Of a stretch of DNA of 64,000 bases, positions 4,897 to 56,628 are shown one piece after another (position 1 is the stretch's first letter; every line of letters starts with the position of its first letter). Under the pieces are notes generated by a model. That model saw only the letters and a program-made list of their open reading frames with translations, did no database searches and was not told the origin of the DNA. The DNA is taken from the NCBI GenBank assembly GCA_049324415.1, contig JBMOOS010000030.1, positions 205,523 to 269,522 on the forward strand, in the 5' to 3' direction. This DNA is from Pseudomonadota bacterium (GTDB lineage Bacteria; Pseudomonadota; Alphaproteobacteria; Sphingomonadales; CAKZYD01). The position numbers and the translations under genes are program-made.

Positions 4897-5565
4897 ATGA
4901 CCGGGCGCATCGGCATCGTCACCGGCATTGCCCAGGAGCACGCCCTCATCAAGGCCTGTAGCGAGGCGCTCGAGGAGGCCGCGCGTCCGCTTTTGCGCTG
5001 CGCCGGCATGGATGGCGAACGCGCGGCGCAGATGGCCGCCGACTTGATGGCGGAAGGGGTTGACGGGCTCTTGAGCTTCGGCGTCGCGGGGGGGCTCGAC
5101 CCTACCCTCAAGCCCGGCGACCTGGTGCTGCCCGAAGTGCTGTTAAGCCAGGGCGCGCCGCGCGCCTTGGCGGACAGACGCTGGCTCGACGCCGCGTTCG
5201 GGCTTGCCTCTCCCGCCAGCATCGGCCCCCTGGTGACGAGCGCCAGAGTGGTGACGACGGCAAGGGAAAAAGCCACCCTTTACCGCGCCAGCCACGCCGT
5301 GGCGGTGGATATGGAAAGCCACCCAATCGCCAGCTTCGCTAATTCCGCCGGCGTTCCCTTCATCGCCTTGCGCGTCATCATCGACCCCGCGCACCAGGAC
5401 CTGCCGGCGGCAGCGCTTGCCGGCAACGCGCCGCGGACCTTGGGCGCGCTTTTGCGCCGCCCACAACACTTGCCGGGCCTTATCCGCCTCGCCCGCAATA
5501 TGGCCAAGGCGAAGCGGACGCTAGGCCGCGTCGGACGTGACGGCTTGCCCCGCTTCGGCCTGTGA
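4897..5565 (+). CDS. hpnG: hopanoid-associated phosphorylase/nucleosidase HpnG
   Basis: ATG at 4897 is preceded by GGAAAGGCAGGA. PNP/UDP-phosphorylase-family sequence (MTGRIGIVTGIAQE...AVAVDMESH) in the conserved position after shc. The longer ORF from 4807 would overlap shc. Confidence 0.8.
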   Translation: MTGRIGIVTGIAQEHALIKACSEALEEAARPLLRCAGMDGERAAQMAADLMAEGVDGLLSFGVAGGLDPTLKPGDLVLPEVLLSQGAPRALADRRWLDAAFGLASPASIGPLVTSARVVTTAREKATLYRASHAVAVDMESHPIASFANSAGVPFIALRVIIDPAHQDLPAAALAGNAPRTLGALLRRPQHLPGLIRLARNMAKAKRTLGRVGRDGLPRFGL

Positions 5566-6675
5566 CGGATTGCTGGCGATGTCATCGAGCGCCTTTTTGA
5601 CATGGTCCTCGAAGTGATATTGCGCCGGGCGCTGCCGGGCGAGGGGGATTTCCGGGGCCATCGGCCCTTCGGTGCGAACCCCCTTGCGGGCGACCTTGAA
5701 AGCCTCGAGGGGGCGGTAGACCGCGTCGAGAACCGCCGTGGGCTCATAGCCGCAATGGGCCATGCAATTGGCGCATTTTTCGTAGTTTCCGGTGCCGTAG
5801 CTGTCCCAATCAGTGGTCTCCATCAGCTCCCTGAACGAGCCGACATAGCCTTCGCCGATAAGATAGCAGGGCTTTTGCCAGCCGAAGACATTGCGCGTCG
5901 GCATGCCCCAGGGGGTGCATTGGTAGCTGCGATTGCCGGCGAGGAAATCAAGGTAAAGGGCGGAATGGTTGAGCGTCCACTTCTTGCCCTTTCCTAAGCG
6001 GAAGATATCGCGGAACAATTCCTTGGTCTTGCGCCGGGTGAGGAAATGCGCCTGGTCGGGGGCGCGCTCATAGGCATAGCCCGGCGAAATGGTGACGCCG
6101 ACCCCGATTGCCTTCGCGAAATCGAGGAAGGCGGCGACGCGCTCCGGCGCCGCGCCATCGAAAATGGTGGCGTTGACATTGACCCTAAAGCCCTTGTCGT
6201 GGGCGATTTTGATGGCGCGCACCGCGCGGTCGAAGACGCCTTCCTGGCACACCGCCTTGTCATGCTCCTCGCGCAAGCCGTCGAGATGGACGGAAAAGAA
6301 GAGATAGGGCGAGGGCTGGAAGAGGTGCAGCTTTTTTTCCAAAAGCAGCGCGTTGGTGCACAGCGACACGAATTTCCTGCGGGCGATGATGCCGGCGACG
6401 ATGGCGCCGATATCCTTGTGCAACAGCGGCTCGCCCCCGGGAATGGCGACCATCGGCGCGCCGCATTCATCGACCGCCGCCAGGCAATCCGCCACCGACA
6501 AGCGCTGGTTGAGAATGGGCGCGGGGTAATCGATCTTGCCGCAGCCGGCGCAGGAGAGGTTGCAGCGGAACAGGGGCTCGAGCATCAGGACCAGGGGATA
6601 GCGCTTGTTGCCCTTCAGCCTTTGCTTGAAGACATAGGCGCCGACACGGATCTGCTGGATTAAGGGAACACCCAC
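5521..6675 (-). CDS. hpnH: adenosylhopane synthase HpnH (radical SAM)
   Basis: Radical-SAM cluster motif CNLSCAGCGKI and an HpnH-like N-terminus (VPLIQQIRVGAYVFKQRLKGNKRYPLVLMLEPLFRCN). The start is set at GTG 6675, 7 nt after GAAGAAGGA; TTG 6705 is the alternative. The 3' end overlaps hpnG convergently by 45 nt. Confidence 0.9.
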   Translation of the reverse strand: MGVPLIQQIRVGAYVFKQRLKGNKRYPLVLMLEPLFRCNLSCAGCGKIDYPAPILNQRLSVADCLAAVDECGAPMVAIPGGEPLLHKDIGAIVAGIIARRKFVSLCTNALLLEKKLHLFQPSPYLFFSVHLDGLREEHDKAVCQEGVFDRAVRAIKIAHDKGFRVNVNATIFDGAAPERVAAFLDFAKAIGVGVTISPGYAYERAPDQAHFLTRRKTKELFRDIFRLGKGKKWTLNHSALYLDFLAGNRSYQCTPWGMPTRNVFGWQKPCYLIGEGYVGSFRELMETTDWDSYGTGNYEKCANCMAHCGYEPTAVLDAVYRPLEAFKVARKGVRTEGPMAPEIPLARQRPAQYHFEDHVKKALDDIASNPSQAEAGQAVTSDAA

Positions 6676-14476: not shown

Positions 14477-14532
14477 CTAATGGTGCGATTCCAACGGATG
14501 GATTTATCCGTTTGGGAAAAGTGGACCACTAG
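14477..14532. mobile_element. 56-bp palindromic MITE-like element (chimeric copy)
   Basis: Sequence CTAATGGTGCGATTCCAACGGATGGATTTATCCGTTTGGGAAAAGTGGACCACTAG. The left end matches the B-type terminus and the right end the A-type terminus of the elements at 35612-35849. It is bounded by CTAA and CTAG. Confidence 0.8.
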
Positions 14533-15892
14533 CCGTGCCTGCCTTATCCTGGATCTCGGGAGGGAGGCCGGCGCGTTCAAGCGCCTGGCTTTGGCGCGTT
14601 CGCAGGGTATCGGCGGCAAAGCCGGCGATGATCTCCTCGAACAGGCGGTGCCAGTTGACCCGCGCTTGCAGGCGCGCGAACACCCCGCCAAGGCCGATGG
14701 CGGCCCGGTCCATGAAGACGAATTCGCGCGGCGGGGTGATGGGGCCCAGCGCCTGCAGCCGGCGCCGCACCTTCATCGCCTGCTCCCGGCCGTAAAGCCC
14801 AAGCTTGTCGGTGGCGGCGATGAGGCGCGGGCGGTCTTCGAGGAGCGGCCCGTAAAGGAATGCCGCCCAGATGTTGAGGGTCTCGATCAGCGGCTTTGAC
14901 AGCTTCCTGAAGCCCCAGGTCTCGTAGGCGTGAACCGCCAGCGCCGCGTCATTGTCGCGCAAAGCGTGGTAAAGGTCGATGACGCCGCCGACGAATGCCG
15001 GGGCGAAGATGCGCACGCAGCCGAAATCGAGAAGGTTGAGGCTGAAGTCATCGGCCAGCGTGTAGTTGCCCAGATGCGGGTCGCCGTGGATGACGCCGAA
15101 ATGGTGAAAAGGCACATACCAGGCGCGAAAAAGCGTGGCGGCGATGTGGTTGCGCGTCGCTTCATCGGCGGCAGATAGGCTAAGCAAGGGCCGGCCTTCC
15201 AGCCAGGTCATGGTAAGAAGACGGTTAGTGCTTAAGGAAGGCAGCGGCTCCGGGACATGGATGTGCGGCGTCTCCGCCAGCATATGACGGTACAGCGCCA
15301 TATGCTTAGCTTCCAAGGCATAATCCAGTTCCTCGCGCAGCCGGGCGGCGATTTCGGCGGCGACCTCGCGGGTGTCGATGGACGGGTCGTGGCGCCGAAA
15401 GAGGCCGAGCACGAGGCCCAGCTGACGCAAGTCCGCCTCGATGACCGAGGCCATGTCGGGATATTGCAGCTTGACGGCAAGGTCCGCGCCTTCCAGGCTC
15501 CGCGCCCTGTGAACCTGGCCCAGCGAGGCGGCGGCGGCGGCGCTGTGCTCGAAATAAGCAAAGCGGGCTTGCCAATCGGGGCCCAATTCAGCGCCCATGC
15601 GCCGTTTGACGAAGGGCCATCCCATGGCTGGCGCCTGGGCCTGCAATTGCGTAAATTCCCGGGCATAGTCGGCGGGCAGGGCGTCGGGAATGGTGGCAAG
15701 AAGCTGCGCCACCTTCATCGCCGGGCCCTTAAGCCCCCCCAAAGCCGCCCGCAAATCGGCGGCCAGCGCCGCGTCGGAGCGGCGCCGACCCAAAAGCTGC
15801 CCGCCAGCGGCGCGCGCGGCGATGCCGCCCAGAGCGCCAGCCAGGCCGGCATAGCGGCGCATGCGGCCCGCCAAACGGTTTTCCTCGTCCAC
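14504..15892 (-). CDS. ABC1/UbiB-family atypical protein kinase
   Basis: 462-aa ORF with ABC1 motifs (GPAMKVAQLLATIPDALP, ASLGQVHRA, AVKLQYPD, HGDPHLGN, LLDFG). The last 9 codons (ASGPLFPNG) and the TAA stop lie inside the palindromic element. Confidence 0.85.
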   Translation of the reverse strand: MDEENRLAGRMRRYAGLAGALGGIAARAAGGQLLGRRRSDAALAADLRAALGGLKGPAMKVAQLLATIPDALPADYAREFTQLQAQAPAMGWPFVKRRMGAELGPDWQARFAYFEHSAAAAASLGQVHRARSLEGADLAVKLQYPDMASVIEADLRQLGLVLGLFRRHDPSIDTREVAAEIAARLREELDYALEAKHMALYRHMLAETPHIHVPEPLPSLSTNRLLTMTWLEGRPLLSLSAADEATRNHIAATLFRAWYVPFHHFGVIHGDPHLGNYTLADDFSLNLLDFGCVRIFAPAFVGGVIDLYHALRDNDAALAVHAYETWGFRKLSKPLIETLNIWAAFLYGPLLEDRPRLIAATDKLGLYGREQAMKVRRRLQALGPITPPREFVFMDRAAIGLGGVFARLQARVNWHRLFEEIIAGFAADTLRTRQSQALERAGLPPEIQDKAGTASGPLFPNG

Positions 15893-32529: not shown

Positions 32530-33924
32530 TCAGACGTTGAGCATGAGAAACTGCGTCTCCCAGGGCGAGAGCACGCTGTAATATTCGGAATATTCGCGGC
32601 GCTTCACGTCAACGAAGGCTCTTAAAAAACCCTCGCCCAGCACCGGGATCAGCTCCTCGGTGGCTTCCAGCGCGTCGAGCGCCGCTAGGTAGTGCTGTGG
32701 CAGGGTCTTGGATTTGAGGCCATAGGCCGATTTGCGCAAGGGCCTTGAGGGGCGCAGGTCCTCCACCATCCCGAGATAGCCGCAGGCCAGCGACGCGGCG
32801 ATGGCGAGATAGGGGTTGACGTCGGAGCCGGCGACCCGGTTCTCGACCCGCCGGTTGGCGGGGGCGCTGAAGGGCACGCGCAAGCCGACGGTGCGGTTTT
32901 CCCGCCCCCAATGGGTGTTGACCGGGGCCGACATGCCGCCGCCGATGCGCCGGTAAGAGTTCATATAAGGGGCAAGGAACGGCATCACCGCCGGCAGATA
33001 GCGCTGCAGGCCGGCGATATGGGAAAGAAACACATCGGTGTCCTCGCCCTGGTCATTGGCGAAGATGTTTTTCCCGGTCTCCAGATCCTCCACCGACTGG
33101 TGGATATGCATCGCCGAGCCGAAATTATGCGGATAGGGCTTGGCCATGAAGGAGGCGAACATGTTGTGCCGGATCGCCGCCTGGCGGACGACGCGCTTGA
33201 AATAGAAGGACTGGTTGGCGACCGCCAAGGGCTCGCCATGGTTGACGTTGAATTCGAACTGGGCGGGGCCTGCCTCGTGGATGAGGGTGTCGATCTGGAT
33301 CTTCTGGGTTTCGCAGAAATCGTAGATGTCGTCGAACAACACGCCATATTCGTCGACGCCGTCGATGGAAAAGGAATCGGTGCCCATCTCGGTCTTGCCG
33401 GAGCGACCCTTGGGTGCGATCGGCGGGGCATGCACGTCGGCCTGGCGGGCGATCAGGTAGAATTCGAACTCGGGCGCCACCACTGGCTTCCAGCCGCGCT
33501 TTTCATAGAGCGATAGAACATTGCACAGCACCTGGCGCGGCGCCAGCGCGACCGGCTTGCCGGTTTCATAATAGGCGTCGCAAATGACGCAGGCGGTGGG
33601 CTCGGACTGCCAGGGCACCAGCACCAGGGTATCCAGATCGGGCAACAGGAACACATCCTGCTCGGTGACCGACATGGCCCCCGACAGCACGAACTCGCCA
33701 TTGACCGTCATCGCGAAGATCGATTCCGGCAAGCGCAGGCCCCGGGTGCGCATGCCTTCGATGAATTTCGCCCGTGGCATCGCCTTGCCGCGGCCTATGC
33801 CAGCGAAATCGGCGACCATCAATTCCACATCGTCCACCTGACGCGCTTCCAGCCAGCGGTCTAGCTCGGCCACCTTGTCGTCGCTGATGGTCGGCACGAT
33901 GGGGGTCTTTTTGGGCTTGCTCAT
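32530..33924 (-). CDS. glutamine synthetase family protein (PuuA/SpuB-like), paralog 3
   Basis: GS catalytic domain (GSAMHIHQSVED, NRTVGLRVP). ATG 33924 overlaps the puuD stop (ATGA). Confidence 0.85.
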   Translation of the reverse strand: MSKPKKTPIVPTISDDKVAELDRWLEARQVDDVELMVADFAGIGRGKAMPRAKFIEGMRTRGLRLPESIFAMTVNGEFVLSGAMSVTEQDVFLLPDLDTLVLVPWQSEPTACVICDAYYETGKPVALAPRQVLCNVLSLYEKRGWKPVVAPEFEFYLIARQADVHAPPIAPKGRSGKTEMGTDSFSIDGVDEYGVLFDDIYDFCETQKIQIDTLIHEAGPAQFEFNVNHGEPLAVANQSFYFKRVVRQAAIRHNMFASFMAKPYPHNFGSAMHIHQSVEDLETGKNIFANDQGEDTDVFLSHIAGLQRYLPAVMPFLAPYMNSYRRIGGGMSAPVNTHWGRENRTVGLRVPFSAPANRRVENRVAGSDVNPYLAIAASLACGYLGMVEDLRPSRPLRKSAYGLKSKTLPQHYLAALDALEATEELIPVLGEGFLRAFVDVKRREYSEYYSVLSPWETQFLMLNV

Positions 33925-34676
33925 GATCGTCTTTCTCGCTGCCGGCGCTGGGTGGCGGCGCCAAAGGCCTCGAACAAAAGCCGATGGTGCGCCGTTTGCG
34001 AGGGCCGCCATTCAGGATGCCATTGCACGCCAAGGGCAAAGCTGGCGGCGTCCTGAACCGCCGCCGCCTCGATGGTGCCGTCCTCGGCTTGTGCTTCGAT
34101 GCGCAGGCGCGGCGCCAGCCGGTCGATGCCTTGGCCGTGCAGCGAATTGACGGTGACCTGATCGGTGGCGAAAAGCGTCGCCAACTGTCCGCCAGGGCTT
34201 AGGGAAACGCGGTGCGCGGGGCCATATTGCGCGTCGAGTGGGGCGTCGTTCTGCTCCCGGTGGTCGAAGCGGCCGGGCACTTCCCAAAGATGGGGATGGA
34301 GGGTGCCGCCCAAGGCGACATTGAGCTCCTGAAAACCCCGGCAGATGCACAGCAGGGGAAGCCCCTGCGCCAGCGCCGCGTCGATGAGGGGCAGGGCGGT
34401 GGCGTCGCGCTGGGTGTCGAGCAGCGTTTCCGCGCGCGGCGGCGCGCCGCCATAGCGCGCCGGGTGAACGTTGGACAGGGCGCCGGTCATCATCACCCCG
34501 TCTATGCCCGCGATGAGGTCGGCAAGGTCGAGGGGCGCATCGAGGACGGGAACGAGCAGGGGCATGGCGCCCGCCGCGTCGCGCACCGCGGCGATGTATT
34601 TCTCGCCGGCGGCGTGGAACAGGTGCTTGCCGATTTTCTGGGCGTCGCAAATGACGGCGACAACAGGCCGCGACAC
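33921..34676 (-). CDS. puuD: gamma-glutamyl-gamma-aminobutyrate hydrolase (PuuD/SpuA, peptidase C26)
   Basis: Class-I glutamine-amidotransferase-like fold. Nucleophile motif LLCICRGFQELN and the QWHPE motif. Confidence 0.85.
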   Translation of the reverse strand: MSRPVVAVICDAQKIGKHLFHAAGEKYIAAVRDAAGAMPLLVPVLDAPLDLADLIAGIDGVMMTGALSNVHPARYGGAPPRAETLLDTQRDATALPLIDAALAQGLPLLCICRGFQELNVALGGTLHPHLWEVPGRFDHREQNDAPLDAQYGPAHRVSLSPGGQLATLFATDQVTVNSLHGQGIDRLAPRLRIEAQAEDGTIEAAAVQDAASFALGVQWHPEWRPSQTAHHRLLFEAFGAATQRRQRERRS

Positions 34677-34811
34677 AAGATTTCTCCGGATGCCGTCCCC
34701 TGCCGCCGCGAGGAGCGGGCAAAGGGCTTGGGCGCGTTCACTGGCTCGAAGTGTTCAAAAAAATAACCACTTGTCAAGCCACCCACCTCGCCGCCGTGCG
34801 CCGAGAGGCTC

Positions 34812-35360
34812 TTAGAAAGGCGGCGTGCAGGCGGAAACCAGGGTGCAAGGCTCATCGCCGACATTGCGGAAGCGATGAGGGGTTGTCGATTTGAAATAAT
34901 AGGCCTCGCCCGGGCCCAGGATGCGCCGCTTGTCGCCGACCAGGATTTCCACCCGCCCGGCGATGATGAAGCCGCACTCCTCGCCGTCGTGGACGAGCGG
35001 CACCGGGCCCGTTCCCGCTCCCGGCGCATAGGATTCGTAAAGGATTTGAATCAGCCGGTTATCGGCGTTGCGCCCAGGCTGCAGGAAATGAACGGGGCCG
35101 CGCCCCAGGTCCACCATGTCCTCCTTGCTGAAGAAAATCTGCTGATCTTCGTGGGGCGGGGTCGCGAAGAAATCGGCGACCGACATGCCGACCCCGTCGA
35201 GGATCTTGACGAGCAGTCCCAAGGTGGGGTCGCTGCGGCCTTGCTCGATGAGGGAAATGGTGCCGTTGGAAACCCCGGCGAGGCGGGCGAGCTCGCGCTG
35301 GGACAGGCCGCGCTCCAGGCGCAGGGCGCGCAGGCGTTGAGCGACGTCGGTCATGGTCAT
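34812..35360 (-). CDS. puuR: XRE-HTH + cupin transcriptional regulator (PuuR-like)
   Basis: 182 aa starting at ATG 35360. N-terminal HTH LRLERGLSQRELARLAGVSNGTISLIEQGR and a C-terminal cupin domain. The ORF-track start at 35642 is an unsupported extension. Confidence 0.8.
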   Translation of the reverse strand: MTMTDVAQRLRALRLERGLSQRELARLAGVSNGTISLIEQGRSDPTLGLLVKILDGVGMSVADFFATPPHEDQQIFFSKEDMVDLGRGPVHFLQPGRNADNRLIQILYESYAPGAGTGPVPLVHDGEECGFIIAGRVEILVGDKRRILGPGEAYYFKSTTPHRFRNVGDEPCTLVSACTPPF

Positions 35361-35387
35361 CTCGTTCAGGTGTTTGATATAATAAAC

Positions 35388-35401
35388 ATTGTGGCGACAA
35401 T
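35388..35401. promoter_or_regulatory. candidate operator palindrome upstream of puuR
   Basis: ATTGT-GGCG-ACAAT inverted repeat inside the AT-rich stretch GTTTGATATAATAAACATTGTGGCGACAATATCG. It lies 28 nt upstream of the puuR start, in the divergent region toward the receptor gene. Confidence 0.25.
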
Positions 35402-35557
35402 ATCGTGCAAAGTCAATGCCTTGAGCCGAAGCGCAAATCATTTGAAAAATCAGGCGGTTGCAATAGGCTAAAGGAGCTGGGGCAGCCATCTGGGGGCACA
35501 GTGAAAGGATGAAGCAGCGCCTTGGCAAAAGGCGCCGGCAACAGGGGGAGAGCGCGG

Positions 35558-38140
35558 ATGAGCCAGGGGGCCAAGGCACGATTGAAGCATGCGGCGCGGG
35601 GCATGACCGCGCTAGTGGTCCACCCCGAACGGATGGATCCATCCGTTCGGGAAAAGTGGACCACTAAGTTATTGAATCTGTGGTGCGATTTCTCCAACAG
35701 ATGGAAACCATCCGTTGGAATCGCACCACTAGTGGTCCACCCCGAACGGATGGATCCATCCGTTCGGGAAAAGTGGACCACTAAGTTATTGAATCTGTGG
35801 TGCGGTTTCTCCAACAGATGGAAACCATCCGTTGGAATCGCACCACTAGCCGTGGTGATGGCGGCGGCGCCCATGGCCGCGGCACAGGAAACGGCGTCAA
35901 TCGAGGAAATCGTGGTGACGGCGCAAAACCGGGCCCAGTCGATCCAGGACGTGCCCATCGCCATCACCGCCTATGACGAAGATTTCATCCGCCGCACCAA
36001 GCTCGATGACGTCAAGGACGTGATCGATTTCACCCCCGGCTTTTCCGGCAAGTCGAAGGACAGCTTTGTCGACCAGTTCGCGGTGCGCGGCATTTCCACC
36101 AATGATTTCGGGGTTGGCGGCGACCCTTCGATCGGCATTTTCAAGGACGGCGTCTATCAGGGGCGCACCGGCGCCGCGATCACCAGCTTTTTCGATATCG
36201 AGCGCACCGAGGCCTTGCGCGGCCCCCAGGGTTTCTTGTTCGGCCGCAACGCGATTTCCGGCGCCATCAGCGTCATCACCAACAAGCCCAACCCCGACAA
36301 GGTCGAGGGCACGGTGCATATCGGCGGCGGCGAGCGTGGCTTGATCGAGGGCGACGCCGCCGTCAACCTGCCGCTCGGCAGCCAGTGGGCGGTGCGGGCG
36401 GCGGGCTATTTCTACCGCGAGAACGGCTATGTGGACAATGCCTTCAACCTCACCGATCCCGACCTTTTGAGCGCGCGCAAATATGCCGGGCGCCTGTCCT
36501 TGGGCTATCGCGGCGACCGGCTTTCGGCGCTCTTCGTCGTAGAATATGAACGGCGCTATCAGTCGGGAAGCATCTATCGCGCGCTGCCAGACGATGAATC
36601 GCTCGCCTTTTTCGGGGCGACCATGCGGGGCGATGGGCGCGACGCCGACAGCGACCTGCGCACGGGCGACAAGGACGACGGCGATATCTTGTCCTTCACC
36701 GCGCAATTGGATTGGGATTTGGACTGGGCGACTCTCACCTCGCTCACCGGCGTGCGCACCCATGACTATAGCTACGCCGAGGATTTCGACGGCTCGCCGC
36801 TCCAGATCAACAATTATTTCCAGGACCAGAGCGGCGACTATTACAGCCAGGAATTCCGTCTCGTGTCCAATGGCGAGGGGCCCTTGAACTGGTTCGCCGG
36901 CGTCTCCGGCTATAAGGAAAATATCGACGCCTCCTTCGCCCAGCAGGGCAACGAGGACCTCATGTGCCTGGCTTTTCTCGAAGTCACCTGCGCCGAGGAA
37001 TATCCCGGCTTCACGCCGCGGCCGGAGGGTCTTTTCGAGACCAACGACGCGCGCGGCCGCTACAAGGGGTTCGCCGCCTTCGCCGACGTCACCTACGCGC
37101 TGACCGAGCGTTTCGAAATCAACGCCGGCGTGCGCTATACCTATGACGAAAAGACCTTTGGCTTGCGGATCAATGAAGTCACCAGCGAGCTCGGTCCCTT
37201 TTTCGTCTTCGGCTACATCACCGATGGCTTCGTCGAGGAAACGCGCAACTGGGACGATGTGACGCCGCGCTTCACCGCCCGCTACAAGCTGACCGACGAT
37301 TGGTCGCTTTGGGGGTCGGTCACGCGCGGCTACAAGGCGGGCGGCTTCGGCACTTTCTCCCTCGACCTGCCGACCCCCGAGCAGCTTGGCTTCACCCCGG
37401 AGGAGATCCAGGCCTGCATCGACGAGGAGCTGGGCATCTTCTGCGTCATCAACGAGGACGGCACGGTGCCCGCAGGCACGACGCCGTCCGCCTTCAACCC
37501 GGAAAAGGTGTGGTCCTATGAAGCCGGCGCCAAGGGCTATCTCGCCGACCGCCGGGTGCAGCTCGACGTCAACGCCTTTTATTACCGCTATCGCGACTTG
37601 CAGATCACCTATTTCGACGACGTCCTCCTCAACACGCTGGTGGAAAATGTCGGCAGGGTGAAGGGCTATGGCCTTGAAGGCACGTTGCGCGCCCAGCCGA
37701 CCGAAAACTGGGACTTTTTGGCCGGCGCCTCCTGGATCGACACCAAGGTCGCCAACGTGCCGGACAGGATTTGCGAGGCGTGCGACGGCAACCGCCTCAA
37801 CCGCCAGCCCAAATGGGTGCTTTCCGGCCTCATCGCCTATCATCATCCGCTGGGCGAGGGCGAGGTGACGCTGCAAGGCGAGGCGCGCTATCAAAGCCGC
37901 TTCTTCGGCAGTCTGGACAACGAGCGGCGGATCTCGGTCGCGCCTTATGCCGATGTCGGCTTTCGCGTCGGCTACCGCTCGCCCGCGGGGTGGGAGCTCG
38001 CCGGCTATGTGGATAACGCCTTCAACAAGCTTTATTACGATGGCGTCAACGACAATGACTTGCCGATCCCCGACCATGTCTTCGGGCCGTCGCGTCCGCG
38101 CACCTTCGGCCTTGACTTCATCTGGTATTTCGGCCGCTAG
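35558..38140 (+). CDS. TonB-dependent receptor whose signal-peptide region is interrupted in frame by 2 x 117-bp palindromic elements
   Basis: ATG 35558 sits behind GGGGGAGAG. Plug motifs IEEIVVTAQNRAQSIQDVPIAITAY and ALRGPQGFLFGRNAISGAI, followed by a long beta-barrel region. Codons 19-96 are element-derived, and the TAG stop lies in the CTAG of another element. Functional status is uncertain. Confidence 0.8.
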   Translation: MSQGAKARLKHAARGMTALVVHPERMDPSVREKWTTKLLNLWCDFSNRWKPSVGIAPLVVHPERMDPSVREKWTTKLLNLWCGFSNRWKPSVGIAPLAVVMAAAPMAAAQETASIEEIVVTAQNRAQSIQDVPIAITAYDEDFIRRTKLDDVKDVIDFTPGFSGKSKDSFVDQFAVRGISTNDFGVGGDPSIGIFKDGVYQGRTGAAITSFFDIERTEALRGPQGFLFGRNAISGAISVITNKPNPDKVEGTVHIGGGERGLIEGDAAVNLPLGSQWAVRAAGYFYRENGYVDNAFNLTDPDLLSARKYAGRLSLGYRGDRLSALFVVEYERRYQSGSIYRALPDDESLAFFGATMRGDGRDADSDLRTGDKDDGDILSFTAQLDWDLDWATLTSLTGVRTHDYSYAEDFDGSPLQINNYFQDQSGDYYSQEFRLVSNGEGPLNWFAGVSGYKENIDASFAQQGNEDLMCLAFLEVTCAEEYPGFTPRPEGLFETNDARGRYKGFAAFADVTYALTERFEINAGVRYTYDEKTFGLRINEVTSELGPFFVFGYITDGFVEETRNWDDVTPRFTARYKLTDDWSLWGSVTRGYKAGGFGTFSLDLPTPEQLGFTPEEIQACIDEELGIFCVINEDGTVPAGTTPSAFNPEKVWSYEAGAKGYLADRRVQLDVNAFYYRYRDLQITYFDDVLLNTLVENVGRVKGYGLEGTLRAQPTENWDFLAGASWIDTKVANVPDRICEACDGNRLNRQPKWVLSGLIAYHHPLGEGEVTLQGEARYQSRFFGSLDNERRISVAPYADVGFRVGYRSPAGWELAGYVDNAFNKLYYDGVNDNDLPIPDHVFGPSRPRTFGLDFIWYFGR
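35612..35849. mobile_element. tandem pair of 117-bp composite palindromic (MITE-like) elements
   Basis: Units 35612-35728 and 35729-35845 differ at a single base (35688 A versus 35805 G). CTAG occurs at 35612, 35729 and 35846. Each unit contains hairpin A (with a perfect 28-bp palindrome CCCGAACGGATGGATCCATCCGTTCGGG) and hairpin B (GTGGTGCGATT...AATCGCACCAC). Confidence 0.9.
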
Positions 38141-38192
38141 TGGTCCACTTTTCCCAAACGGATGGATTTATCCGTTTGGGGCGGACCACTAG
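38137..38192. mobile_element. 56-bp palindromic MITE-like element (solo hairpin-A type, inverted orientation)
   Basis: Sequence CTAGTGGTCCACTTTTCCCAAACGGATGGATTTATCCGTTTGGGGCGGACCACTAG. It is bounded by CTAG on both sides and overlaps the receptor stop codon. Confidence 0.85.
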
Positions 38193-38223
38193 GGTCAGGA
38201 CCACTTAATTTCAGGGTGTCACG

Positions 38224-39966
38224 GTGATGTTGCGCCACATGTGGCGATGCTTGCTTGGCCTTGTCGCGCTGGCCGTCATGGCCGCTTGCGCCGCTCCGCC
38301 TCGCCCTGCCGACATGGTGTTCTGGGGCGGCGCGGTCCATGCCATGGACGCGGCCCGCACCGTGGCCGAGGCGGTGGCGATAAGGGACGGCGTCATCATT
38401 TACGTCGGTGCGCGCAAGGGGGCGGCGCTTCTCGTCGGCCCGGCGACGCGCATCGTCGACATGGCGGGCGGGGCGCTGTTTCCCGGCTTCACCGACGCCC
38501 ATGTCCACATGAGCGACGGCGGCGCGCAGCTCGCGATGCTGTCGCTGGGGCAAGCGACGACGCCGCAGCAGGTGCAGGCGCTGCTCGCCGCCTACGCCAA
38601 GGCGCATCCAATGCTCGACGTCATCGTCGGCGCTGGCTGGGAGCTTTCGATCTTTCCCAACGCCCATCCGTCGAAGGACCTCATCGATGCCGTGGTTCCC
38701 GACCGGCCGGTCGTCCTTTACGCCGCCGATGGGCATAACGCCTGGGTGAACAGCACGGCCCTCGCCCGCGCGGGCATCGACAAGGCGACACCCGATCCCG
38801 CCAACGGCCGGATCGAGCGCGAGGCGACCACTGGCGCGCCCACCGGCGTCTTGCGCGAGGCCGCGCAAGCGCTTCTCGCCCCGCTCATTCCGAAGCCCAG
38901 CCTTGATGAGCAGGTGGCATATCTGCGCCAGGGCATGGCCTATGAAAACGCTTATGGCTACACCGCGGCGATCGAGGCGTCGGTTCCCGCCGGCCTTATC
39001 GAGGAAGCTTATGCCGCGGCGGCGAAGGCGGGTGTTTTAAGCTTGCGCATCGCCCTCTCGCTAACCCCGGGCGAAGCGCTTCTCGACACGGCGGTGCGCC
39101 GCGAAACGATGGCGGCGGCCGTCGCCGCCCTTGCCGCCCGGCGCCAGGCGATCGCCGCCCAGGGCTTTGCCTATCTTACAGCGCCGGCAGTCAAGATCTT
39201 CGTCGATGGCGTCATGGAGAACCACACCGCCGCCTTGCTCGCCCCTTATATCGGCAGCATGCTGGGGATGGCGCATCGCGGCGACCTCATGATGCCGGAG
39301 GCCGTGCTCAAGGATTATGTGACGGCGCTCGACGCGGCGGGCTTTCAAGTGCATTTCCACGCCATCGGCGACCGCGCGGTGCGCGTCGCCCTCGATGCCG
39401 TGGAACAGGCGCGGATGGTGAATGACGGAGGGGCGCGCCGGCATCATCTTTCCCATCTGGAGCTTATCGACCCGGCTGACCTTCCCCGCTTTGCCGCCCT
39501 TGGCGCCTACGCCAATGTGCAAGCCTTGTGGGCCTATGCCGACGGCTATATCACCGACTTGACCGAGCCTTATCTCGGCCCGGCGCGCGCCCGCTGGCTT
39601 TATCCCATCGGCTCGCTGGAAAGGGCGGGGGCACGGCTGGCCATGGGCTCCGACTGGCCGGTCTCCAGCGCCAATCCCCTGGCCGCCATCGAGGTGGCGG
39701 TCAGGCGGCAAGACTGGCGTAAGGACGGCGATGACGCCTGGCATCCAGAGGAGCGGGCGAGCCTCGATGCGATGCTCGCCGCGCTCACCATCGGCGGCGC
39801 GCGGCTGATGGGCGAGGAAGCGCTGCGCGGCACCCTCGAAGCGGGCAAGGCCGCCGATCTCACCCTCCTCGACCGCGATCCCTACAAGGTCCGTGTGGAG
39901 GCGCTTTCCGAGATTGCCGCGCGCATGACCGTGCTCGCCGGCAAGCCGGTCTACGAGAGGCCGTGA
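38224..39966 (+). CDS. amidohydrolase-family metal-dependent hydrolase (Amidohydro_3/YtcJ-like), probable lipoprotein
   Basis: Lipoprotein-type N-terminus LLGLVALAVMAAC. Metal-ligand motifs FPGFTDAHVHM, HFHAIGD and GSDWPV. The start is GTG 38224 or ATG 38227. Confidence 0.8.
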   Translation: MMLRHMWRCLLGLVALAVMAACAAPPRPADMVFWGGAVHAMDAARTVAEAVAIRDGVIIYVGARKGAALLVGPATRIVDMAGGALFPGFTDAHVHMSDGGAQLAMLSLGQATTPQQVQALLAAYAKAHPMLDVIVGAGWELSIFPNAHPSKDLIDAVVPDRPVVLYAADGHNAWVNSTALARAGIDKATPDPANGRIEREATTGAPTGVLREAAQALLAPLIPKPSLDEQVAYLRQGMAYENAYGYTAAIEASVPAGLIEEAYAAAAKAGVLSLRIALSLTPGEALLDTAVRRETMAAAVAALAARRQAIAAQGFAYLTAPAVKIFVDGVMENHTAALLAPYIGSMLGMAHRGDLMMPEAVLKDYVTALDAAGFQVHFHAIGDRAVRVALDAVEQARMVNDGGARRHHLSHLELIDPADLPRFAALGAYANVQALWAYADGYITDLTEPYLGPARARWLYPIGSLERAGARLAMGSDWPVSSANPLAAIEVAVRRQDWRKDGDDAWHPEERASLDAMLAALTIGGARLMGEEALRGTLEAGKAADLTLLDRDPYKVRVEALSEIAARMTVLAGKPVYERP

Positions 39967-54180: not shown

Positions 54181-56628
54181 ATGTCGGCTGGAGCAAGGGG
54201 TGCCAGCGCGTTCGGCGTAGGCATGAGGGGAGCGGAAAGAAACTTTGTGCAGAGGCGCGCCGCGGGATGGTTGAAAACGGGCCTATTGGCGACCTCGGCC
54301 ATGGCCGCCATGGTGGCGAGCACGCATTTCACTACTCCCGCTCAAGCACAAGGGACGGGCGATGCCATGCAGGCGCCAGGCGATTCTGTCGGCCCCAGGG
54401 ATTTTGTCGGTATCGAGGAAATCACCGTCACCGCTCGCCGCCGCGAGGAGCGCCTTCAGGAAACGCCGATCGCCATTTCCGCCTTTTCCGGCTCTGAGCT
54501 GGAAGCGCGCAATCTCACTAATTTAGCGGAAGTGGGCGCTTTCATTCCCAATGTGGTGATGTCCACCGCACCCGGCGGCAGCGGCGGCGGCAGCAACCTG
54601 CAGGTCTATATTCGCGGCATCGGCCAGACCGATTTTCTGTTCACCACAGATCCCGGCGTCGGCGTTTATATCGACGGGGTTTACCATCCCCGCACCTTGG
54701 GCGGCGTTCTCGACCTTTTAGACTTGGCGCGGATCGAGGTGCTGCGCGGCCCCCAAGGGACGCTCTTTGGCAAGAATACCATTGGCGGGGCGATCAGCGT
54801 GGTCTCCGCCAAGCCAAAAGGCGACGGCAGCGGCTCTTTCCAAGCGACCACCGGGCGCTTTGATCGCATCGACATTCGCGGCGGTTTCGACTTCGCCATC
54901 ACCGATACCCTCTTCGCCAAGGTCGCCGCTTCGTCCAAGGACCGGGACGGCTATGGCAAGCGCCTCGAATTCGGGACCGATAAACTGTTGGATAGGACGG
55001 GCGATGAAAATAAAAGCGCGGCCCGTATTGCCTTGAGGTGGCTTGCCTCCGAAAGGGTGACGGTGGACCTTGCCGCCGACTATTCCCGCACCCGCGAAAA
55101 ATCGGTGCCGACCGCGCTGATGGCGTTCGACCTTGCCGCCAGCCCGGTCGCCCAACTGTGGAACGCGCTGGTCGCCGATCCCTTTCCCATGAGCACCGCC
55201 TTTATCACCGGCGATCCCTTCATCAGCTATGGCACCGGGCCCAACAGAAACCTTCTCGATGCCTATGGGTTTGGCCTCACCATCGACTGGGATCTCGGGA
55301 ACGATTTGGCGCTGAAATCGATCACCGCCTATCGGGAAATGGATGCCGGCTTTGGCCGCGACGGCGATGGCTCGCCCAATTCCTTTGTTCATACCAATCA
55401 GAATCAGAATCAACGCCAGATCAGCGAGGAAATACAGCTTTCCGGAAGGGGGCTGGATAACCGGCTGAATTGGCTCATGGGCGCCTTTTTCTTCAGCGAG
55501 TTCGGGCGCGACCAGAACGCCGTGCGCCTGGCCTCGGGCCTGTTCGACGCCCTGGAAGGGCTGCCGGGACCGCTCGACGGGTCGCCGCTCAACGCGCCCA
55601 CCGCACCCGGTGGGCCAGGCAATCCCATTAACACAGCGCTTGACTTGGATTTCAGTATTTTCAACGAGATCAAGATCAAAAGCTATGCCGCCTTTGCCCA
55701 GGCCACCTTCGATATGACGGACCGCCTCGGCCTCACCGCTGGAATACGCTACAGCTACGAGACCAAGGACTACACGCTCGATCACCAGAAAATCAATTCC
55801 GGCGTTCCCATCTTTACCGGCGAAGAGCGCGACAGTTGGGGCTCGTTCACCCCCATGGGCACGCTCGACTATCAATGGCGCGACGATGTCCTCACTTATT
55901 TTACCGTGTCGCGCGGCTTTAAATCGGGCGGTTTCAATGGCCGGCCGATCAACGAGGGGTCGGTGTCGTCATTCCGCCCGGAATATGTGACGTCGTTCGA
56001 ATTGGGCGCCAAGACCCAGTGGCTGGACCGCCGCGTCCAGCTCAATCTCGCGGCCTTTTACAACAATTACACCGATATTCAATTGAGCAGCGTCAGCGCC
56101 GATGAAAATGGTATTCTTCAGCTTCTGGTGCAAAATGCCGGCAAGGCCCGGGTCAAGGGCTTTGAGGCGGAGCTCACCGCCCGCCCGACGCAGCGGCTTA
56201 CCCTCACCGCCGCGCTGGGCTATACCGACTTCAACATCGTCAAGCTGGCGCCCAATGTGGTCGACGTGACCTTGGACACGCGCTGGCCGAAAACGCCGGC
56301 ATGGACGGCGGCCGCCAGCGCCGAATATACCATTCCCATGGCAACTTACGGCTTTCTGGCGTTGCGCGGCGATTGGACCTATCAGTCGAAGACGTATCAG
56401 GAGCCGAGCAACGAGGAAGCCATCGCCCAGGATGGCTATAGCCTTTTTGGCGCGCGCCTTGTCTTTGCCCATGAGGAGGGCGGCTGGGAGCTTGCGGTGT
56501 TCGGCACCAATTTGACCGACAAGCGCTATATCGTGAATGGATTGTCGGCGATTTCCAGCTTCGGCACCGCGGAAGCCTTTTTCGCCCGCCCGCGCGAATG
56601 GGGGCTGAGCCTTAAAAAGACATTCTAA
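54181..56628 (+). CDS. TonB-dependent receptor
   Basis: ATG 54181 sits behind GGGGAGGG. Signal region ...LLATSAMAAMVASTHFTTPAQA. Plug motifs IEEITVTARRREERLQETPIAISAF and VLRGPQGTLFGKNTIGGAI. Aromatic C-terminus ...LSLKKTF. Confidence 0.9.
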   Translation: MSAGARGASAFGVGMRGAERNFVQRRAAGWLKTGLLATSAMAAMVASTHFTTPAQAQGTGDAMQAPGDSVGPRDFVGIEEITVTARRREERLQETPIAISAFSGSELEARNLTNLAEVGAFIPNVVMSTAPGGSGGGSNLQVYIRGIGQTDFLFTTDPGVGVYIDGVYHPRTLGGVLDLLDLARIEVLRGPQGTLFGKNTIGGAISVVSAKPKGDGSGSFQATTGRFDRIDIRGGFDFAITDTLFAKVAASSKDRDGYGKRLEFGTDKLLDRTGDENKSAARIALRWLASERVTVDLAADYSRTREKSVPTALMAFDLAASPVAQLWNALVADPFPMSTAFITGDPFISYGTGPNRNLLDAYGFGLTIDWDLGNDLALKSITAYREMDAGFGRDGDGSPNSFVHTNQNQNQRQISEEIQLSGRGLDNRLNWLMGAFFFSEFGRDQNAVRLASGLFDALEGLPGPLDGSPLNAPTAPGGPGNPINTALDLDFSIFNEIKIKSYAAFAQATFDMTDRLGLTAGIRYSYETKDYTLDHQKINSGVPIFTGEERDSWGSFTPMGTLDYQWRDDVLTYFTVSRGFKSGGFNGRPINEGSVSSFRPEYVTSFELGAKTQWLDRRVQLNLAAFYNNYTDIQLSSVSADENGILQLLVQNAGKARVKGFEAELTARPTQRLTLTAALGYTDFNIVKLAPNVVDVTLDTRWPKTPAWTAAASAEYTIPMATYGFLALRGDWTYQSKTYQEPSNEEAIAQDGYSLFGARLVFAHEEGGWELAVFGTNLTDKRYIVNGLSAISSFGTAEAFFARPREWGLSLKKTF

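Follow-up and report, generated by a model that had tools for sequence, protein, structure and literature searches.

How does a TonB-dependent receptor gene come to carry 234 bp of repetitive DNA within its signal-peptide codons while its reading frame stays open, and what becomes of the protein it encodes? The gene in question (forward strand, 35558-38140; Plug and beta-barrel domains assigned by Pfam) lies in a 64,000-bp stretch, hereafter the window, of contig JBMOOS010000030.1 from a metagenome-assembled genome (MAG) of the Sphingomonadales lineage CAKZYD01 (assembly GCA_049324415.1), and its signal-peptide codons are split after MSQGAKARLKHAARGMTAL. An initial annotation, made from the sequence of the window, had described two tandem palindromic elements inserted in frame at this position. 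Here we report that the 234 bp, judged by comparison with orthologous receptors, is an insertion, which probably consists of two side-by-side copies of a non-autonomous mobile element of 115 bp (a miniature inverted-repeat transposable element, MITE) that inserts at TA and prefers C-TA-G. It is a real in-frame mobile-element insertion at an unusual site, but nothing about it lies outside the known kinds of element.

An insertion in the receptor signal peptide

Seven orthologous receptors from Rhodothalassiaceae, Emcibacter, Paremcibacter and Luteithermobacter, whose leaders comprise about 25-45 residues and none of which carries the 78 residues, align to the receptor with a gap of ~78 columns exactly at the insert, after which the alignment resumes at the h-region and the plug. 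Identity to these orthologues is 53-62% over the aligned N-terminal ~110-180 residues and 55-65% over the full length, and the relatives of the receptor are found in Rhodothalassiaceae, Emcibacter and Kordiimonas. Removal of the 234 bp in silico gives MSQGAKARLKHAARGMTALAVVMAAAPMAAAQETAS, the leader of which reads MSQGAKARLKHAARGMTALAVVMAAAPMAAA/QETAS and represents a canonical signal peptide, as the initial annotation had proposed; the predicted cleavage site, AAA/QE, is located at 35882-35887. The in-frame palindromic insertion postulated there is borne out by the orthologues and by copies of the element found elsewhere in the source genome and in other genomes.

Anatomy of the tandem element

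The insert comprises two direct 117-bp repeats (35612-35728 and 35729-35845) whose sole difference is A35688 versus G35805, with CTAG at 35612, 35729 and 35846 and two hairpins per unit; all of this had been described before and was reproduced here, the quoted stems and the 28-bp palindrome being exact. The element proper is 115 bp long, with a 15-bp linker separating two hairpins of 50 bp each, the 117-bp unit being this element plus TA. The left CTAG (35612-35615) contains the left copy of the duplicated target (TA 35613-35614; original codons GCG CTA GCC) and is followed on the forward strand by copy 1 (35615-35729; hairpin A 35615-35664, linker 35665-35679, hairpin B 35680-35729), which scores 109 bits (E 3e-24) against a covariance model of the family. 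A TA common to both copies (35730-35731) forms the junction CCAC-TA-GTGG, which regenerates CTAG, and copy 2 (35732-35846, forward strand, 94 bits), altered only at 35805, is followed by the right TA of the duplicated target (35847-35848) within the CTAG at 35846-35849. The linker of copy 1 bears a GANTC (CcrM-type) site, GAATC, at 35674-35678, and further GANTC sites are located at 35718, 35791 and 35835.

Folded as RNA, one unit forms two hairpins with -70.2 kcal/mol, compared with -30.8 +/- 3.6 kcal/mol for dinucleotide shuffles (z = -11), and as DNA it reaches -43.8 kcal/mol (z = -11.6). The receptor frame (+0) and one opposite-strand frame (-2) of the unit are free of stops, in agreement with the initial annotation, and the remaining four are closed. 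The element ends read GTGGT…/…ACCAC, i.e., GTGGTNCGAT…/…ATCGNACCAC, and over ~24 nt the left and right ends are inverted copies of each other with the pattern TAGTGGT-N-C-N6-AACGGATGG; the covariance model accordingly gives near-equal scores on both strands, making the element quasi-symmetric. Since the element starts with G and ends with C, C-TA-G is rebuilt on both sides.

Further copies in the window, the same genome and other genomes

Sensitive BLAST combined with the covariance model revealed four copies of the family in the window. Besides the tandem pair, a solo single-hairpin copy of the hairpin-A type (50 bp, 38140-38189; 38 bits, E 2e-7) is flanked by TA at 38138-38139 and 38190-38191, and its left CTAG holds the TAG stop of the receptor (38138-38140), regenerated by the first G of the element, so that the receptor gene bears family copies at both its 5' and its 3' end (solo copy region 38137-38192). 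The other solo copy (14480-14529; 29 bits, E 4e-5), flanked by TA at 14478-14479 and 14530-14531, is chimeric, its left arm ATGGTGCGATT being of the B type and its right arm GTGGACCAC of the A type, which suggests recombination between the two hairpins at the common AACGGATGG core. To an ABC1 atypical-kinase gene (14504-15892, reverse strand; …KAGTA/SGPLFPNG-stop) this copy supplies the stop and the eight codons before it, in place of a reconstructed 19-residue tail; the empty site would end …KAGTA/RVGYSPAFPAHAGMNQWDH-stop. On another contig, a ZapE gene (P0121) carries a diverged in-frame copy of 38 codons (~80% identical); the accessions of the receptor and of ZapE are ~1,750 apart in one NCBI series, which suggests that this contig belongs to the same MAG.

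Beyond this genome, a metagenome scan with a pattern of 24 specified bases yielded 46 loci, and after curation 37 distinct full copies were obtained with lengths of 115 bp (19 copies), 116 bp (7), 117 bp (6), 112 bp (2), 114 bp (2) and 118 bp (1), while a peptide search through 1.84 billion proteins and a separate word-index search turned up further translated copies. The isolate Nitratireductor soli (Hyphomicrobiales) harbors an array of four full units with the same 117-bp period and a truncated fifth one (L054, 2985-3460; LFVY01000009.1) between hprK and the EIIA/HPr genes of its chvI-chvG-hprK cluster, annotated as a 232-aa hypothetical protein (WP_048647201.1). Overall, the element belongs to a family of two-hairpin, TA-duplicating MITEs that is widespread among alphaproteobacteria.

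Several searches returned nothing of the family. Scanning 185,579 species genomes with the window-specific 20-mer AACGGATGGATCCATCCGTT, too narrow a query because most family members carry GGATGGTTCCCATCC instead, gave only two unrelated short palindromes; BLASTN of the window unit, the L008 subtype and 16 concatenated subtypes found no match in 72,556 plasmids, and a scan of viral contigs found nothing. Two brute-force hairpin scans were noisy and useful only in showing the 50/15/50 geometry. Rfam contains no family for the element, the best match of the window copies having E 0.39. One subtype (L010, 2820-2939; L046, 766-885) has two mutually complementary hairpins, allowing the whole element to fold as one long hairpin, which explains why the L010 subtype, and only this one, matches the mraW RNA model (RF01746; 39.7 bits versus a gathering score of 50) and matches unrelated miRNA models as well or better (MIR8565, 45 bits). 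An identity as mraW RNA was rejected as sub-threshold, generic long-hairpin mimicry.

Target site and the stop-codon niche

Among the 37 full copies the left flank is CTA in 30 and the right flank TAG in 27. Copies at other targets bear on the duplication: L015 and L043 are flanked as T-TA-G…C-TA-A, and L023 and L042 as C-TA-G…C-TA-A. The T-TA…TA-A and C-TA…TA-A flanks fit duplication of a TA at TTAA or CTAA (a YTAR-like target), and by the same flanks a 4-bp CTAG duplication of the IS5 type was rejected. CTAG is rare in the window, with 36 sites, six of which are made by elements, and the tandem copies in the receptor gene have one TA in common.

Of 52 testable element ends, 22 close an open reading frame (ORF) of at least 100 codons at the flanking TAG (p = 0.0025), compared with 24% of other CTAG sites and 13% of other TAG sites in the same loci. 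Pfam-confirmed genes that end at an element TAG encode TrkA, ribosomal protein L18, the small chain of ribonucleotide reductase (RNR), a beta-lactamase-family protein, a cyclase, a rubrerythrin-like protein and a thioesterase, and for L18 the end of the Pfam profile coincides with the last residue of the ORF closed by the element. The first base of the element being G, insertion into the TA of a C-TAG stop restores that stop. The usual home of the family is a C-TAG stop codon, where it is harmless; the copy at the receptor stop follows this rule and the copies in the signal peptide are the exception. The typical site is thus a C-TAG stop or an intergenic position rather than the interior of an ORF.

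The L18 copy (L011, 366-484) is a full one placed directly after the stop, between L18 and S5 in a ribosomal-protein operon, and must therefore be co-transcribed at a high level. Furthermore, locus L040 has two copies (543-661 and 1465-1571) on either side of a gene that was considered as a transposase, a candidate rejected because its ORF translation reads as a MucR/Ros-type regulator; a gene call there runs from the first copy into mucR and thereby gains a spurious N-terminal extension.

In-frame copies in genes and signal peptides

At least six copies are inserted in frame in genes, with roughly eight in-gene cases overall. In three proteins the unit interrupts a Pfam match: in ZapE, AFG1_ATPase is picked up again at residue 102 (position 52 of the profile); in an FGGY kinase, FGGY_C ends at residue 61 (position 193 of 198 in the profile); and in an IS5-type transposase, DUF772 ends at profile position 43 of 74. 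In the last case, a full copy (L053, 3293-3411) lies in frame in the transposase gene and splits this domain. Half of the in-gene cases, four of about eight, are found in N-terminal leaders, namely those of the receptor, a DUF2066 protein, an M23 peptidase and a small membrane protein (P0124, P0131 and P0133/L055 for the cases other than the receptor), and removal of the unit from the DUF2066 case (L055) restores MGLPFSRG-L-VLLALALPLLAPAPRPASA/AE. Leaders are cleaved off and contain many Leu-Ala and Leu-Val pairs, for which CTA-G is a possible spelling; target supply together with tolerance may explain this pattern.

Whether the family has been selected for tolerance within frames, as the initial annotation had considered, is at most hinted at by the metagenomic copies: length plus TA is a multiple of 3 in 22 of the 37 copies, and frame +0 is open in 51% and frame -2 in 43% of them. 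The family is not uniformly frame-neutral, and the survivors within genes are those copies that happen to be. A stronger version, which we regard as unlikely, would have the family shaped for coding neutrality, its G…C termini regenerating C-TAG stops and CTA-G Leu codons, its frame +0 being kept open, its …NRWK-PSVGIAPL rebuilding the boundary of n-region and h-region, and its internal ATG and TTG codons being available as starts; if this were true, leader insertions in exported proteins would be silent or could even donate new leaders and starts.

Start site and product of the interrupted receptor gene

The native start of the receptor, ATG 35558, is intact and best placed. Its Shine-Dalgarno (SD) sequence on the forward strand, GGGGGAGAG, is likewise intact, a promoter-like site (TGGTCA-18-TATAAT with a TG, 35354-35383, forward strand) lies upstream and is untouched by the insert, and among the in-frame receptor starts this ATG has both the best SD and the best accessibility (0.59). 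The insert brings in additional in-frame codons on the forward strand: the ATGs at 35633-35635 and 35750-35752, in hairpin A of copies 1 and 2, respectively, are fully paired (unpaired probability 0.00) and without SD, and a TTG at 35789-35791 in the linker of copy 2 has its counterpart at 35672 in copy 1. TTG 35789 is indeed in frame, but the suggestion that it donates a new start did not hold up well, as it is a weak candidate, half-accessible and preceded by a weak, badly spaced SD-like motif (AAGTGG, 13 nt upstream), with ATG 35558 being the better one; a gene call in P0125 begins at the equivalent TTG. Scanning found neither a promoter nor a terminator in the insert, and no T-run terminator in the element.

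The likeliest product would carry a 109-residue presequence, translated from ATG 35558 through both copies. The insert frame ends ...NRWK-PSVGIAPL, i.e., …NRWKPSVGIAPL, directly before AVVMAAAPMAAA/QE, so that a basic stretch, a long hydrophobic run and an AxA site stay contiguous. With this basic and hydrophobic run recreated ahead of an untouched h-region and AxA site, export may be reduced rather than abolished; it could survive at lower efficiency or fail. In addition, the 5' coding region now contains four strong hairpins, with possible effects on the stability or translation of the mRNA.

In the public NCBI annotation, the model of the receptor (MFZ5609826.1, P0001, 755 aa) has its start at M106, which lies after the insert, and for this reason has no signal peptide; it looks like an annotation casualty of the insert (35558-35875). 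This gene model, the 115-bp boundaries, the ATGs at 35633 and 35750 and the two further window copies go beyond what the initial annotation had recorded. On the minus strand, a long ORF (34812-35642) starts inside the element, and its element-derived extension was rejected as spurious, the real part being an XRE-cupin regulator that starts near 35370.

Conservation of the hairpins and of GANTC sites

In an alignment of 34 copies, 16 of 34 pairs show compensatory changes, and the covariation is present in both arms. Paired cells amount to 95.4% as opposed to 82.5% in shuffles, and the covariation score of 0.354 exceeds the 0.129 of the shuffles, 0 of 500 of which reach it, as well as controls with slid partners (at most 0.074). 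GANTC sites occur 1.46 times per copy versus 0.45 in shuffles, with at least one site in 33 of 37 copies, and recur at alignment column 78 (21 of 34 copies) and column 43 (15 of 34). Most copies place them in 3-nt stem bulges or in the linker, the L017/L024 subtype at the loop apex. Within the window GANTC is under-represented about 3-fold (64 sites, 1.0 per kb versus 3.35 expected from base composition), and it is ~12-fold denser in copies than in the window as a whole.

Comparison with known repeat families

By architecture, the closest relatives are the CIR elements (CcrM-associated intergenic repeats, CIR1-4) of Caulobacter crescentus and other alphaproteobacteria and the palindromic Brucella repeats Bru-RS1 and Bru-RS2, which have two arms with a linker, TA termini and GANTC (PMC2229807). 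The family described here likewise has alphaproteobacterial hosts, judged by N. soli and by the relatives of the receptor, is ~100-116 bp long, forms two independent stem-loops with a linker instead of one end-to-end hairpin, has TA at both termini and contains conserved GANTC, in one subtype at the hairpin apex. IS711 duplicates TA at YTAR and favors Bru-RS repeats (PMC2266754, PMC3163539), and analogously, IS711 itself not being involved, three IS630 elements sit at the terminal TA of this element. On the other hand, CIR elements reportedly never lie within genes and have each of their six frames closed by stops (PMC2229807), whereas in this family about half of the copies leave two frames open and at least six gene insertions are in frame, with GANTC mostly at 3-nt stem bulges or in the linker and not in the loop. 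Taken together, the family, compared with the published descriptions, is probably CIR/Bru-RS-like.

The initial annotation had drawn a parallel to the RPE of Rickettsia, palindromic repeats of ~100-150 bp that lie in frame in conserved protein genes whose products can stay functional (PMC2229807). The parallel stands as far as in-frame fusion is concerned, given the copies in ZapE, the FGGY kinase, the IS5-type transposase and signal peptides, but in architecture the CIR/Bru-RS repeats are the better comparison: RPE are Rickettsia-specific, are modelled as one long stem-loop, have TA ends only in some cases, and their target-site duplication is listed as undetermined (PMC2229807), whereas the present family has non-Rickettsia hosts, folds as two hairpins, clearly duplicates TA, prefers CTAG and occupies the stop-codon niche. 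RUP of Streptococcus pneumoniae and the Correia/NEMIS elements of Neisseria, MITEs mobilized by the IS630/Tc1-mariner class, are ~107-155 bp long with TA duplication and inverted ends (PMC2229807). Insertion beside or inside insertion sequences (ISs), exemplified here by the copy in the IS5-type transposase gene, is shared with RUP, and ORFs fused to genes are known from the 107-bp Correia form (PMC2229807). Nevertheless, both fold end to end, in contrast to the two separate hairpins of this element, and the ends of RUP match IS630-Spn1, while no IS with matching ends was found in our searches.

A probable mobile element at TA and the alternatives

Our preferred explanation, which we hold to be likely, is that the 234 bp are two adjacent copies of a MITE that duplicates TA. 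Such an element would insert into TA with a strong preference for C-TA-G, and, by regenerating CTAG on both sides, would leave a C-TAG stop intact and at the same time offer a fresh target for a second copy or an IS630-type IS; arrays could also grow by unequal exchange. Within an ORF, a CTA-G site (Leu-Ala or Leu-Val) in frame +0 would take up 39 stop-free codons per copy, and in the receptor the target would have been CTA-GCC at the boundary of n-region and h-region. The most economical mover would be a DDE transposase of the IS630/Tc1-mariner type that is specific for TA and acts in trans. In line with bacterial MITEs, the element is small, non-coding, multi-copy and dispersed, with TA duplication and terminal inverted repeats. 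The counterpart expected of a MITE, an autonomous IS that has matching ends and encodes a transposase, did not turn up among the sequences searched, which were the window, ~210 kb of loci, the 72,556 plasmids and the viral contigs.

Three different IS630-family elements do lie exactly at the terminal TA of copies (L035, 73-125; L036, 1110-1240; L009, 287-430). Two of them are complete at 1,048 bp, the one at L035 is cut off by the contig end, and their transposases are 48-59% identical. Their ends, GAGC… like those of a plasmid relative, resemble the element at best with z ~4, at one end and among 25 tests. With complete ends and a TA of their own, and lacking any robust resemblance to the element, they share its target but were rejected as its parent. 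The element ends appear to be a hot spot for TA/CTAG-specific ISs, and recreation of its own target by the element explains both the tandem arrays and the IS630 pile-ups at its ends. A larger parent ending in such a hairpin, considered for L017, L024, L028 and others, was also rejected, these being ordinary two-hairpin copies, several of which represent one locus sampled repeatedly.

Besides the undetected autonomous partner and the poor fit of the IS630 ends, other points weigh against the preferred explanation. The insert-free orthologues are at most 65% identical, and no near-identical empty site is available at the DNA level. Strong covariation in each hairpin is not needed for a MITE moved by a DDE transposase and would fit an enzyme that recognizes single-stranded hairpins, or a function at the RNA level. 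Any export competence of the 109-residue presequence is a prediction. Moreover, tandem copies need not stem from two insertions: every junction of the N. soli array is CCAC-TG-GTGG, meaning that the array expanded after a change of TA to TG, by unequal exchange or slippage, which demonstrates a duplication route. For the pair in the window, a second insertion into the regenerated CTAG and a duplication both provide an explanation and are indistinguishable.

An enzyme of the HUH/Y1 class could instead move the element as single-stranded DNA, the repeat then being of REP/REPIN-RAYT kind or derived from IS200/IS605 (PATE-like) and inserting 3' of a CTAG-like tetranucleotide without TA duplication. 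The stable, strongly covarying hairpin in each half speaks for this, as do the existence of solo hairpins, the lack of any detected DDE transposase with matching inverted repeats and the REP-like locations right after stops and between convergent genes; pairs of hairpins with a linker are likewise known from REP, BIME and REPIN-RAYT systems. REPs are shorter than this element and are not known to duplicate their target. At non-CTAG targets, however, the outer bases vary independently while TA is kept on both sides, as TA duplication predicts, the element is quasi-symmetric where IS200/IS605 ends are asymmetric, the conserved GTAG head is absent, and no Y1 transposase was seen beside any copy, though no profile search was aimed at Y1. 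We consider this mode of movement rather improbable. Quite improbable in our estimation is that the repeat is a host-kept cis-element, either a stabilizer or terminator at mRNA 3' ends or a CcrM-linked GANTC module as proposed for CIR, which spread mostly by recombination and reached the receptor as a by-product. Enrichment of GANTC at conserved alignment columns, copies at gene 3' ends including the L18-S5 position, structure kept across subfamilies and growth of the N. soli array by duplication all agree with it, and it is compatible with the MITE explanation; yet the scans showed neither a T-run terminator nor a promoter in the element, the interruption of conserved domains and of a signal peptide is selfish behavior, and the TA flanks and IS-like target choice point to transposition. 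Finally, an assembly artefact behind the tandem duplication, or behind the insert as a whole, is very improbable. It would be favored by the MAG origin of the sequence, by the classic tendency of repeats to be mis-assembled and by the difference of one base only between the copies. But differ they do, short-read assemblers tend to collapse tandem repeats and not to create them, the TA/CTAG structure at the junctions is exactly that of the family, the receptor frame stays open, and an isolate genome contains the four-unit array of the same period.

Implications for annotation and neighboring features

For genome annotation, the truncated receptor model and other gene calls that begin inside the element or run through it illustrate that a covariance model of the family would allow masking in annotation pipelines. 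Regarding the tolerance of mobile elements, G…C ends at the TA of C-TAG restore the very stop codon that was struck, and the signal-peptide cases suggest that cleavable leaders tolerate in-frame insertions. Should the family prove to be CIR/Bru-RS, a transposition signature and a stop-codon niche could be assigned to these long-unexplained alphaproteobacterial repeats, and N. soli would be a cultured and tractable host for them.

The receptor belongs to a cluster (32530-39966) with a glutamine-synthetase-like gene, a peptidase C26 of the gamma-glutamyl hydrolase type, the divergent XRE-cupin regulator and a large amidohydrolase, which may be a catabolic uptake locus for amines or polyamines. 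A search of protein representatives also returned a weak match, P0126 (193 aa), with four repeats of ~50 residues (…RHFCALRCDGSVHW…GISVLSD…), which may be translated from tandem DNA repeats of another family. Short tandem repeats unrelated to the element are present in the window at 5526-5573 (25-bp period, 2 copies) and 54372-54410 (18-bp period, 2.1 copies).

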